This document shows positions 22,638 through 25,600 of a DNA stretch of 64,000 nt, piece after piece (positions within the stretch are counted from its first letter, which is position 1; each line of letters opens with the position of its first letter). Location: NCBI GenBank assembly GCA_015233495.1, contig JADFXQ010000001.1:2790-66789 (forward strand), read 5' to 3'. This DNA comes from Candidatus Omnitrophota bacterium. Lineage in GTDB: Bacteria; Omnitrophota; Gorgyraeia; Zapsychrales; Zapsychraceae. The position numbers and the translations under genes are program-made. The notes beneath the pieces are model-generated. The model was not told where the DNA came from. It saw only the letters and a program-made list of their open reading frames with translations, and did no database searches.

Positions 22638-25600
22638 ATTCCTTTCGTCCAAATAGACCAGCTTGGCTTTAATGTTTTTATCCGGATATATTTCCTTGAT
22701 CGTATGCATATATTCCTCGGCCTGGGACCGGTGCTCCTGTGCGTAGGGTTCGCCGGTTTTAAATTCGATCACGGTCACGGTTTTCCGGTCAATCACGAGC
22801 CGGTCGATCCGGCGCAAATAGCCGTGACTGCCTACGATGTTGACTTCCGTGCAGACTTGCGCTGGGCCGCAATGAAAGATTTCGTGGAACGCGGGGTCTT
22901 GGATTACGGATAAAATTTCGTTGGCGCTGATTTCTTCGCGGGGCGATGACGGGCGCCCACTATCCTGCCTGCCGTGGCAGGGGGCGCCCCCACGAACAGT
23001 TGCCTTTTCCCGGCCAATAAATTCTGCGAATGATTTTGCCTCGGCCGGATCGGCTAAATTCCCGATGGCCGCCAACACTTCGTGCCAGGCTTCGCCGCGT
23101 CGGCGGGATTGCCTACGGGATAAAGTATCGCTGGTCGCGATTTCTTCCCGGATAAAGTCGGTCCAGTCTTGATAGTGCGGAGAAGGCAACACTCGCCCCT
23201 GCCCTTCGCTCTGGGCAAGCTGTCCCTCCCCAACAGAGGGCGAGGGGATCGCGTTACCAAACCAATTCTCCGGGATCAAATGTTTAATCAGATTCTGACT
23301 GTTCCCCGCCTTGGCCGGCACAAAGGCGTAAAGCTCGTCCTGGGCCCGGGTCAACGCCACATAGACGCTGTTCAATTCGGAAATGAGCGATTGACGATAT
23401 TCCTGCCGATAAATGTCGGCGAGGTCGGCGGAATAGGCTGTATAGGAATCTTTCAAACGAAGCAAGGCCATTTCATCACCCTGCTCTTCGATCACGAACG
23501 AACGTTTCTGATCATGGGCGTTTCCGCCAACCGTGATATCCATTTCCAAAAACGGCAGAATGACCGCGCGGAATTCCAGTCCCTTGGCCTTGTGCACAGT
23601 GAGCACCTGCACCGCGTCGTCCCCGCCGGAAGTGACATAAAAATCCTCGCCTTCGCTATTGTCAAAAAACTCTAAAAAACTTTCCGCATCCGGGCATTCA
23701 CTTTCCTGACGTTTTAACAAATCTAAAAAATGCATGAAAAATCCCTGGGCCTCCGGGAATATCTCCAGACAACGATATCGGGCATACAAACCGGTCAGCA
23801 GTTCATAAAGCGGAAAAACGCCGATGTTTTTAAAAAACGGCTCGATGAATTCAACCCAGGCCTGCGGAAAATGTTCGCGAAAATCAATGTATAAATAATG
23901 CTCCTTGCGGGCCGACCGCGATTGCCGGCGGCCGAACAGGAAATCCGCCATCTCTTGTTCCGTGATCCCGGCCGGCCGCCGGAAAAACGCGCTCGACACA
24001 AACCGGGCGAAATATTGATCTTCAACGGGCTGATGCAAAAAACGCAGAAACCAAAGCATTTCCTCGATCCGCGGATGCCGGCGAATGTCTGCGGTGCGCT
24101 CGGAATACACAGGAATTCCGAATTCCAGCAACCAGCTCGCGATCGTTTCCACCTGCTGATTGGTGCGGGTCAGAATCGCGACTTTGCCCAAAGGATACCG
24201 GGTCAATAATTCTTCCAATAAAGTCCGCATTTGCTCCCGGATGATTGTGTTGCGCTCCTCCTTCACCCTCGCTTCCACTGTTACAATCCGGACACAACCG
24301 CCCGCTTTTTCCGGCAAAGCGCTTTGCCGGCTGTTTTCAAACACCTGCTCAACCGCCCGCCGGTCTTCCGCGGTCAATCCGATATTTCCTTTTCCGGCAA
24401 CCGGTTCCGCGTTTAAAAATTGCCGCAAATTCTCCAAGGAAAAAACCGCGTTGTTCAAGTCAATGATCGCCGACCGGCTGCGCCGATTTAAAGAGAGGTA
24501 TTCTTCCCGGCTGTTAAACGCTTGAAACCGCTGTTGCACTTCGTCGAACAAGCGCGCGTCCCCGCCGCGAAACCGATAAATCGCCTGCTTTTTATCGCCG
24601 ACATAAAACAAAGTCCCGCCCGAAGACAAGGCCTCTTCCGGAAGCGGCGCGAGATTCTGCCATTGCAGCCGGCTGGTGTCCTGGAATTCATCGACGAGAT
24701 AATGCCGAAACCGCGCGGACAGCCGGTAATATATTTCCTCAACGGTCATCCCTTTCCGGCCGACTAAATGACTCGCCTTTTTATTCAGCTCCGATAAAAA
24801 AAGGATATCTTCCCGGCTGGCGCGGATCGCGAATTCCGCCGCAACCTCTCCATAGAGCCGGATGTACGCGTCAAACAATGACCGGGACTCTGTCTCGCAT
24901 ACGATCTGCAAACCATCCTGGATCGCCGGCCATAAACGCCTGACTTCCGACGGGATTTCGGCTCCCTTATTCACCGGCACTTCCTCCCGCCGAAAATAAT
25001 CCGATACAGAGTCGATATCAAACCCACGGGAGTGTAGGCTTAAAAATTTCTCCAACGCCGCGCGAAACGACTTGTGCGTCTTATCCGGAAGATTTTCCCG
25101 CAATTGTTTCATCATCACCAATATTTTTTGCTTCCGCCCGATGATGTCCTTGCCGGAAAAACCGCTCAACGCGAACGGCCGGCCATAGGTATTATCCAAA
25201 TGAAACAGCACGCCTAAGATGTCCAGTCCGTCTTTTTTCGGAAACCAGCCCGAGCGGTTTTCTAAAAACAGATATTGATGAATAAAATCCTCCAGCAAAG
25301 CAGCCGCGCCCGGTTCCCGGCGGGCCCGGTCAATCACCTGGTCCAAACTGTATTCCAAATAATCCTTTGCGCCGGTGCGGATGCGGAAATTGGCGGTCAA
25401 CCCGATGTGATAAGAACTGCTGACCAGAAGCAAATTGATGAATTGGTCAATAGTCTGTACGGCAAAAGCGTTGTAATGCCGCGGCAATTGGTCCATGACG
25501 GACAAGGCCAAAGACCGGGCTGTCGCGTCATCAATCCCGGCCGGGCCCAGAAACGCGGGCAGTTGCACCTTGTCCATCTTGCCCAAAGCCAATTGTTTCA

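Follow-up and report, generated by a model that had tools for sequence, protein, structure and literature searches.

A probable GTAG-tagged REP element read in frame within the addA- and addB-like genes of an Omnitrophota bacterium

A GC-rich hairpin lies inside an addA-like gene in the stretch of Omnitrophota DNA analysed here (64 kb in total, called the window below). The locus raises the question of what kind of sequence this is and how a large helicase-nuclease gene came to contain it and stay open. The hairpin is real and was correctly read from the sequence. It belongs to a palindromic element with the consensus GT[AG]G-GGGCGCCC-(inner hairpin)-GGGCGCCC-GTYAT, of which there are three copies in the window. 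The copies and the genes concerned are the following.

22946..22993, minus strand: candidate REP copy c2, GTGG-GGGCGCCC-CCTGCC-AC-GGCAGG-CAGGATAGT-GGGCGCCC-GTCAT (5' to 3' on the minus strand)
18146..18205, plus strand: candidate REP copy c3, GTAG-GGGCGCCC-AAGCTGCCGGCAGGCAGGCGAGA-GGGCGCCC-ATACGTT-CGCCCGTTAT, inside the AddB-like gene
12304..12352, minus strand: candidate REP copy c1, GTAG-GGGCGCCC-CCTGCC-TTC-GGCAGG-CAGGCTCGT-GGGCGCCC-GTTAT, extragenic
12272..12287: partial inverted copy of the element's tail, CTTGTGGGTGCCCGTT, which pairs with AACGGGCGCCCACGAG at 12306-12321 at 14 of 16 positions
12349-13563: serpin gene (Pfam, E 3.5e-120)
22620..25808, minus strand: AddA-like gene, 1062 aa, UvrD-type SF1 helicase with a C-terminal RecB-family nuclease domain
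16358..19249, minus strand: AddB-like gene, 963 aa, degenerate helicase-like body with a C-terminal PD-(D/E)XK nuclease
18107..18211, minus strand: lineage-specific insertion of AddB, 35 aa (105 nt), aa 347-381, DRITGERMGALSPACRQLGRPYDKQSFSNTADAIW

Paired octamers of the form GGGCGCCC-N10-40-GGGCGCCC are found in the window at 12309-12348, 18150-18188 and 22951-22989 (n=3), while dinucleotide-preserving shuffles yielded none in 100 trials; three copies are thus observed against zero expected per 64 kb. The octamers of c2 occupy 22951-22958 and 22982-22989. A scan for GT[AG]G followed by a GC hairpin also returned exactly c1-c3 (chance expectation of 0.24 matches per 64 kb), a generic scan that is not diagnostic when taken alone. 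In the alignment the heads GTAG (c1), GTGG (c2) and GTAG (c3) stand immediately 5' of the stem and the tail is conserved. The unit is ~48 nt long and can be searched as GT[AG]GGGGCGCCC...GGGCGCCCGTYAT. Copies c1 and c2 are 76% identical; c3 has indels, and its tail shows an apparent interruption of ~10 nt. Copies c2 and c3 are intragenic, in a window that is 94% coding. The third, c1, has a GTAG head overlapping the TAG stop codon of the serpin gene, and the partial inverted tail copy next to it may be what is left of a dimer joined tail to tail. A paralogous 3' fragment of the serpin gene (47 nt, 13965-14011, ...GGCGTAG|TTGCC, free of the element) was considered as an empty site for c1 and rejected, the flanks being non-homologous beyond the fragment.

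The first-pass annotation had described the element as a palindrome present in opposite orientations in two genes. The orientation is as described, the copy at 18150-18188 (c3) being inverted relative to the one in AddA (c2). The octamers are indeed inverted repeats, but the polar GT[AG]G head points to a GTAG-type REP and not to a plain palindrome.

An artefact of assembly or sequencing has next to no probability as the origin of these copies. The source is a metagenome-assembled genome (MAG), and a second, independent assembly of this organism was not found; against this, the copies differ from one another, all three have unique flanks, the two host ORFs (~1000 codons each) stay open across their inserts, and inserts of a comparable kind are seen in other Omnitrophota that were assembled independently.

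The full GGGCGCCC palindrome was found in none of 185,579 representative genomes, and the full pattern had 0 matches in JGI metagenomes. The half-pattern GGGCGCCC-N5-CCTGCCTGCC gave 83 single matches, mostly in high-GC genomes, which lack the full palindrome and were discarded as chance matches. Six-frame translations of the element, concatenated into a protein query for other decorated proteins, returned nothing at E <= 10, in a search whose tool does not reach peptides as short and low in complexity as these. The element has its head GTAGGGGCG (9 nt) in common with a metagenomic family, GTAGGGGCGGCC-N6-GGCCGCCC, found in more than 120 metagenome stretches, in which the loop is far from random and head-to-head dimers are frequent. 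At one locus (L130) palindromes of the form GTAGGGGCG... lie on both sides of a Y1_Tnp gene.

The two host genes encode the subunits of one complex, as had been proposed: Pfam, sequence search against solved structures and Foldseek identify homologues of AddA and AddB. For the AddA host, the assignment is established by Pfam (UvrD-helicase and UvrD_C), by the best sequence match among solved structures (B. subtilis AddA 3u44_A, E 5e-39) and by fold (best Foldseek match 4cei_A, E 8e-35). A protein 100% identical to this ORF is annotated in a Candidatus Omnitrophica MAG. The AddB-like protein matches PDDEXK_1 in Pfam and AddB 3u4q_B as its best Foldseek hit (E 1.3e-24). Their nearest relatives are only 47-49% identical. 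In three related genomes addA and addB are direct neighbours; here a tRNA-Val gene and an inserted island of ~3 kb come between them.

The AddA-like ORF reads EKATVRGGAPCHGRQDSGRPSSPREE around the hairpin, where the insert TVRGGAPCHGRQDSGRPSS corresponds to aa 937-955 (nt 22944-23000). Copy c2 codes in frame for most of these residues, which bears out the earlier statement that a copy lies in frame within the nuclease domain. Alignment with orthologues had been set beforehand as the test on which this reading could fail, and the segment was found in 0/119 AddA orthologues (42-47% identity); the reading stands. The distance between the conserved anchors on either side is 82 aa here and 68 aa in 85/119 orthologues (range 63-75), i.e., 14 aa more in the query. 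The insert ends 33 residues upstream of the conserved E988 of the nuclease core, its first catalytic motif (the first-pass figure was about 30), and 47 upstream of D1002. Residues invariant in the orthologues are retained in the AddA-like protein, namely those of Walker A, E988, D1002 and K1017. Position 1015, a D in at least 90% of the orthologues, is an E here and still conforms to (D/E)xK. The AF2 model of the protein has a mean pLDDT of 86.6 and its sole long internal stretch below 50 is 938-956, the insert, which is modelled as a coil joining two helices ahead of the first catalytic acidic residue.

The situation in AddB is similar, with a larger insertion of which the element supplies only ~20 of the 35 residues. 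The QLS-YYA anchors are spaced by 8 aa in 116/119 orthologues and by 43 in the query, and none of the 119 orthologues has a matching segment at the site. Three other orthologues carry independent insertions at the same loop. An insertion in this loop, that of P0165, has only a 6-bp hairpin that is no outlier, so that not every insertion there is a REP. The AF2 model again has a mean pLDDT of 86.6, with a long internal segment below 50 at 353-381 (the insert), and the orthologue-invariant residues D844, D858 and K860 are retained. The AddA and AddB genes of other Omnitrophota bear private hairpin inserts of their own.

Both intragenic copies are read in phase to give G-A...G-R-P, although they are inverted relative to each other, because the terminal octamer GGGCGCCC is its own reverse complement. 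The similarity of the two peptides that had been noted holds only at the ends; the interiors differ (GGAPCHGRQDSGRP in AddA, GALSPACRQLGRP in AddB). Each copy is free of stop codons in four of its six frames, and the stops in the remaining two are the TAG of the head and the TAA of the tail (TAG in c2).

Folded as single-stranded DNA, c2 reaches -17.1 kcal/mol (z -3.2), c3 -17.8 (z -5.3) and c1 -18.4 (z -4.5). The fold comprises an 8-bp outer stem and a 5-6-bp inner hairpin with an asymmetric bulge, the GT[AG]G head being unpaired (in c3 the head is able to pair with the tail too). Among 12,800 windows of 60 nt scanned over the 64 kb, c2 is the strongest hairpin and the three copies rank 1, 2 and 5, rank 5 being c3; the second-strongest window, 12266-12325, includes the partial inverted tail copy. 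The GC content is 0.75 in c2 and 0.53 in the AddA-like gene.

Such a hairpin could also act in cis as an RNA or DNA signal that was recruited in genes and does not move, for instance by stabilising mRNA, pausing translation or binding a protein. The sense RNA does fold at about -32 kcal/mol, and the extragenic copy c1 lies exactly at a gene 3' end, where REPs are thought to stabilise mRNA. We consider this very improbable, as the RNA z-scores are weak (-1.9 to -2.3), the two intragenic copies give different RNAs because their orientations are opposite, Rfam has no match (no family at gathering thresholds or at E <= 1), and the orthologues do without anything at these sites.

The segment is probably a copy of a small family of GTAG-tagged REPs, that is, of non-autonomous hairpin-forming mobile DNA. 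Each of c1-c3 is a short GC-rich imperfect palindrome with a stem within the 6-13 bp of REPs, and each has the unpaired GTAG end, GTRG and GTGG being accepted variants. Another REP trait, a mostly extragenic siting near gene 3' ends, is not seen here, c1 alone being extragenic. By analogy with characterised REPs, the units would owe their movement to a HUH tyrosine transposase of the RAYT/TnpA-REP kind with its gene elsewhere in the genome, an enzyme whose target is the hairpin, folded from single-stranded DNA, plus the GTAG beside it. Such a gene usually has its REPs on either side. Mobility of comparable elements is supported by a related Omnitrophota clade of AddA orthologues 84-90% identical, in which private insertions of 21, 51, 21 and 30 nt have clean empty sites in sister genomes. 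The copies that inserted into addA and addB would have survived because they added a whole number of codons, were read in a stop-free frame and hit surface loops that tolerate indels. The inserts are presumably transcribed and translated into disordered loops of ~14-20 residues rich in Gly, Pro and Arg that leave the catalytic motifs intact, and they would be neutral for AddAB function. No RAYT/Y1_Tnp gene was detected by Pfam among the 35 ORFs of the window and a HMMER query with E. coli RayT matched no window ORF, the 64 kb being a small part of the genome.

A miniature element (MITE) moved by a classical DDE transposase would offer another origin, with the GGGCGCCC octamers as terminal inverted repeats and a short target-site duplication produced on insertion. 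The outer octamers are perfect inverted repeats. Another Omnitrophota genome has a MITE-like repeat of ~140 nt that is read in frame in three genes (AddA, ProC and a DUF2764 gene). Two of the filled sites in the clade with private AddA insertions, each of them holding a hairpin, show 5-nt direct repeats where the insertion joins its flanks (GGCCG and GAGGC). These junction repeats would fit a DDE-type MITE better than the RAYT mechanism. For the element of the window a MITE is nevertheless unlikely: its ends outside the stem are polar (GT[AG]G versus GTYAT), a REP signature and not a symmetrical terminal inverted repeat, its ~48 nt are below the typical MITE length, no target-site duplication is recognisable around the three copies, and no transposase of any kind was present among the scanned ORFs of the window.

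The presence of both intragenic copies in two subunits of a single complex might alternatively mean that the inserts were kept for a changed AddAB function, in nuclease regulation or end resection, leading to a hyper-recombination or mutator state, with repair genes becoming REP hosts by selection. The probability of one copy falling in each of the two genes, for two copies placed uniformly over coding sequence, is ~0.005, a post hoc figure. Repair genes are over-represented among REP-decorated genes, for which mutator effects have been speculated (Di Nocera et al., PMC3733652), and private hairpin insertions recur in these two proteins elsewhere in the phylum. We hold such selection to be improbable. 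The inserts fall in loops where conservation is lowest and indels are frequent, and the models show them as disordered; similar elements are found elsewhere in ProC, a DUF2764 protein, glycosidases, an asparagine-synthase-like protein and the RAYT gene itself. Moreover, AddA and AddB are easy targets because they are long and fast-evolving (~45-50% identity within the phylum). A broader form of the proposal is a long shot too: REPs would build up more readily in repair genes, those of AddAB/RecBCD included, in different phyla and repeatedly so in Omnitrophota, and the inserts described here would be selected and not neutral, tuning end resection or nuclease activity, or blunting the enzyme that would destroy the single-stranded hairpin intermediates of the elements.

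With the GTAG-tagged REP as the preferred reading, the element of the window adds to a known phenomenon, since in-frame intragenic REPs were described in 2013 in other bacteria. Omnitrophota, a candidate phylum known mainly from metagenomes, would join the few lineages with palindromic mobile DNA in proteins, and it would do so with a clear example of a repair complex whose two subunits both bear one element. The finding supports the idea that large proteins repeatedly gain new surface loops from small hairpin repeats that lack stops, and it is relevant to a point brought up in 2013, whether REPs have repair genes as preferred hosts. For annotation, such inserts can explain odd low-confidence loops rich in Gly, Pro and Arg in MAG proteins.

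By definition, a GTAG REP has an unpaired head, GTAG or at times GTRG or GTGG, adjoining a 6-13 bp stem, and its loop may be simple or complex; such REPs are present in the PVC superphylum (PMC3733652). The REPs that TnpA-REP processes are single-stranded and folded (Corneloup et al. 2021, PMC8266576). The window element resembles GTAG REPs and REPINs in its GT[AG]G head, 8-bp GC-rich stem, complex loop with an inner hairpin and diverged dispersed copies, in the position of c1 abutting a gene 3' end with a partial tail-to-tail partner beside it, and in a head that is common to a widespread metagenomic REP family linked to Y1_Tnp genes. It differs from them in its length of ~48 nt, at the long end of the REP range, in the self-complementary octamer of its stem, in the three copies visible and no RAYT found in 64 kb, and in having two of three copies within genes. 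Classical REPs are mostly extragenic and near gene 3' ends, with documented intragenic exceptions (PMC3733652).

Those exceptions are the closest known parallels to the case described here. Intragenic GTAG REPs, many of them in repair genes, include those in C. burnetii addB (CBU_1229) and in O. terrae RecD, UvrA, DnaE2 and DNA ligase (Di Nocera et al. 2013, PMC3733652, Additional file 3), and they add 7-30 residues rich in Gly, Pro, Ala and Arg, in frame and stop-free, to DNA-repair proteins (PMC3733652). The likeness extends to in-frame, stop-free insertion and to repair hosts that include an AddB and RecBCD subunits. In the present case, one AddAB pair is decorated in both subunits by the same family in opposite orientations, the phylum is another one (Omnitrophota), and the REP has another sequence; the 2013 work was carried out without structural placement. 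Bacterial MITEs are likewise small non-coding structured repeats able to land in genes, but they are much longer than the window element, whose ends are polar and around which no target-site duplication can be recognised. The palindromic RPE of Rickettsia, too, are inserted in frame in genes whose proteins are probably functional (PMC3733652), and in-frame palindromic insertion is found here as well, with intact ORFs, invariant residues kept and loops predicted to be disordered. RPE-1 is a longer palindromic insertion, and the shorter RPE-4 and RPE-6 are CGTC-tagged (PMC3733652). By this description the window element is set apart from RPE: it has a GT[AG]G head instead of CGTC, measures ~48 nt, and belongs to a bacterium of another lineage and lifestyle.

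The GC-rich palindrome that the first-pass annotation had placed in frame within an AddA-like nuclease gene is confirmed. It underlies residues 937–955 (TVRGGAPCHGRQDSGRPSS) of the 1062-aa product and has the octamer GGGCGCCC at each end (22951–22958 and 22982–22989). The window contains three matches to the pattern GGGCGCCC-N10-40-GGGCGCCC (12309–12348, 18150–18188, 22951–22989), and none of 100 dinucleotide-preserving shuffles contained any, so that the coordinates of the repeat and its non-random nature are borne out. The three copies are the following.

c1, 12352->12304, minus strand, beside the serpin gene: GTAG-GGGCGCCC-CCTGCCTTCGGCAGG-CAGGCTCGT-GGGCGCCC-GTTAT
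c2, 22993->22946, minus strand, inside the AddA-like gene: GTGG-GGGCGCCC-CCTGCCACGGCAGG-CAGGATAGT-GGGCGCCC-GTCAT
c3, 18146->18205, plus strand, inside the AddB-like gene: GTAG-GGGCGCCC-AAGCTGCCGGCAGGCAGGCGAGA-GGGCGCCC-ATACGTT-CGCCCGTTAT

Aligned in one orientation, all copies carry GT[AG]G at one end and GTYAT at the other, so the unit is polar. It comprises the GT[AG]G head, an outer stem of 8 bp, an inner hairpin of 5–6 bp with an asymmetric bulge, and the GTYAT tail, which seems split by ~10 nt in c3. The GC content of the copies is 70–78% (49% for the window) and their single-stranded DNA folding energy is −17.1 to −18.4 kcal/mol (z −3.2 to −5.3). An unbiased hairpin scan of the 64 kb (12,800 overlapping segments of 60 nt) ranked c2 first, the c1 region second and c3 fifth. 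No Rfam family matched the element. c1 is extragenic except for its head, whose GTAG provides the TAG stop of the serpin gene; a 16-nt partial inverted copy of the REP tail lies next to it (12272–12287). An assembly artefact is very unlikely because the three copies have diverged, their contexts are unique and the long ORFs stay open. Four of the six frames are free of stops in each copy, the stops of the remaining two coming from the TAG of the head and the TAA of the tail (TAG in c2). Translated in silico, c2 and c3 are in the same phase, with a G-A start and a G-R-P end, a consequence of the octamer being identical to its reverse complement. The similar peptide predicted for either orientation is found at these ends but not in the interior residues.

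The host genes and the segments between them are listed here.

22620–25808, minus strand: AddA-like ORF, 1062 aa, with UvrD-helicase and UvrD_C domains
about 19594–22609: island 1, ~3 kb, encoding RhuM, DUF6577 and AbiEii proteins
19335–19409: tRNA-Val(AAC) gene, between the ~3-kb island and addB
16358–19249: AddB-like ORF, 963 aa, with a C-terminal PD-(D/E)XK domain
about 12244–16357: island 2, a lineage-specific block in the addB–yggS interval

By sequence, the closest solved relative of the 1062-aa protein is B. subtilis AddA (3u44_A, E 5e-39). The top matches of the AlphaFold2 models are AddA 4cei_A (E 8e-35) and, for the 963-aa protein, AddB 3u4q_B (E 1.3e-24). A Candidatus Omnitrophica MAG has proteins identical to both on a 187-kb contig. 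Domains, solved structures and model matches identify the hosts as AddA and AddB homologues, in line with the earlier view that both subunits carry the element (c2 in AddA, c3 in AddB). The opposite orientation of the intragenic copies was also verified, c2 being on the minus and c3 on the plus strand. A function of the hairpin as cis-regulatory RNA is weakly supported: its RNA z-scores are about −2, and c2 and c3 are oppositely oriented within their genes.

addA and addB adjoin each other in three other Omnitrophota genomes, where they are followed by yggS-proC-MTAP in the order of the window; ileS-dksA-lspA is also found downstream in two of the three, again ordered as in the window. Here the tRNA-Val gene and island 1 lie between addA and addB, and island 2 separates addB from yggS. 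Island 1 is flanked by a 36-nt direct repeat (19558–19593 and 22610–22645, 94% identical). This repeat comprises the stop and final codons of addA, which suggests that the island entered at the addA 3′ end and duplicated that end. Island 2 encodes a full-length serpin, a HicA toxin preceded by a partner ORF, a Fic-like C-terminal fragment and two ORFs of 218 and 333 aa that lack a Pfam match; c1 is positioned at its yggS-proximal border. Another copy of the serpin 3′ end (12356–12402) precedes the serpin start by ~400 nt (13965–14011; 47 nt, 94% identical); it terminates in GGCGTAG, lacks the REP and may be what is left of another serpin gene. Elsewhere, a 2853-aa ORF (45689–54250) has a 161-nt direct repeat (44802–44962 and 54159–54319, 85% identical) at either end, the downstream copy overlapping a 73-aa ORF. 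Two adjoining direct repeats (92 and 73 nt; 36046–36201 and 37943–38110, ~1.9 kb apart, 75–81% identical) neighbour ABC-transporter and SpoU methylase genes.

Alignment with 119 AddA orthologues (42–47% identity) identified the repeat-encoded residues as extra. In 85 of them, 68 aa separate the G-E-x-x-H helix from the T-E catalytic strand (range in the set, 63–75); the window protein has 82 aa there, the surplus being the residues encoded by c2. In AddB, the QLS and YYA anchors are separated by 8 aa in 116 of 119 orthologues and by 43 aa in the window protein, an insertion of 35 aa. c3 explains ~20 of these; the rest is AT-richer (DKQSFSNTADAIW). Unrelated insertions at the same loop in the three other orthologues indicate that it is permissive. 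The models, built with ~90 orthologues each, have a mean pLDDT of 86.6 each. The internal AddA segments below 50 are 861–863 and 938–956, the latter being the repeat peptide, which is modelled as a coil between helices 921–937 and 962–969, preceding the strands that bear E988, D1002 and E1015/K1017. Those of AddB are 353–381, the insertion, and 729–735. Orthologue-invariant residues are kept in both proteins, including those of Walker A and the acidic residues and lysines of the nuclease.

Where the alignments of AddA and AddB show private insertions of at least 7 aa, these are often rich in Gly, Pro and Arg, and there is an indication, new to our study, that hairpin inserts recur in these proteins across Omnitrophota. 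At locus L087, a head-to-head GTAG REP dimer (GTAGGGGCGGCC...GGCCAGCCCCTAC) forms the AddB insertion and is the top hairpin of the 21.9-kb locus (z −7.0). The insertion in AddA belongs to a ~140-nt structured repeat (6242–6378, 6735–6871, 11179–11337, 15797–15911) that also lies in frame within ProC and within a DUF2764 gene, a situation resembling that of the Rickettsia RPE. Locus L084 has an insertion at the AddB loop used in the window, with a different perfect 10-bp palindrome that is its strongest hairpin; the P0165 insertion has a weak hairpin only. Within an AddA clade of 84–90% identity, P0052 and P0067 carry three and two private insertions, respectively, and sister genomes show clean empty sites. 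Comparison of filled and empty sites at the DNA level yielded inserts of 21, 51, 21 and 30 nt, each length divisible by three. Those of 21 nt begin with a [G/A]TAGG head and contain a hairpin of 5 bp. In the comparison of L086 with L208 (the AddA genes of P0052 and P0036), the inserts of 51 and 30 nt have 5-nt direct repeats at their junctions (GGCCG and GAGGC), which hint at target-site duplication or microhomology-mediated insertion. These junction repeats would fit a MITE moved by a DDE-type mechanism, a less probable origin for the window element.

A related family, GTAGGGGCGGCC-N6-GGCCGCCC, has the 9-nt head GTAGGGGCG in common with the window element. Over 120 stretches of metagenome sequence match it. 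The 120 that were analysed hold 151 copies, including many head-to-head dimers, and the loop, C[TC]N[CT]GT, is strongly non-random. Several ordinary-looking genes carry in-frame copies; by eye, they resemble asparagine synthase, glycosidase and TPR protein genes. Three stretches encode Y1_Tnp proteins, and the association of the family with such genes provides indirect support for a RAYT link of the window element. The L130 gene has perfect GTAGGGGCGAATAATTATTCGCCCCTAC palindromes on both flanks, a REPtron-like layout. The RAYT-like genes of soil metagenome loci L130 (494–1222) and L199 (156–779) each contain an in-frame GTAGGGGCGGCC REP, whose peptides (VGAAPRGRP and VGAVLCGRP) directly follow the HUH motif.

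GTAG-tagged REPs are defined by an unpaired GTAG head adjoining a GC stem of 6–13 bp with a simple or complex loop; degenerate GTRG heads are allowed, GTGG being found in Opitutus terrae, and hosts include Proteobacteria, Cyanobacteria, Chloroflexi and the PVC superphylum (PMC3733652). The window element shares the head (GT[AG]G), the GC stem (8 bp) and the complex loop, and a non-autonomous GTAG-type REP is its best-supported classification. The mobility of REPs is attributed to the HUH tyrosine transposase RAYT/TnpA-REP, which acts on the folded single strand (PMC8266576). No RAYT gene was found in the 64-kb window; the element could have spread through single-stranded hairpin intermediates aided by a RAYT encoded elsewhere. 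Intragenic copies would survive only where the frame is kept, stops are absent and the loop is tolerant, and would then be translated into disordered loops. An adaptive role of the inserts in AddAB is suggested only by the hit on both subunits (post hoc p ~0.005 for one copy per gene, with two copies uniform over coding sequence) and by the published enrichment of repair genes among REP hosts (PMC3733652), but similar elements are also found in unrelated genes, and AddA and AddB are long and variable. The first-pass interpretation holds. The literature searched yielded no description of REPs in Omnitrophota. Intragenic GTAG REPs in repair genes are already reported: AddB of Coxiella burnetii contains a REP dimer, and in O. 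terrae there are REPs in RecD, DnaE2, DNA ligase and, twice, UvrA (PMC3733652, Additional file 3). New relative to these are the host phylum, the presence of one REP family in both AddAB subunits and the placement of the inserts in predicted disordered loops.
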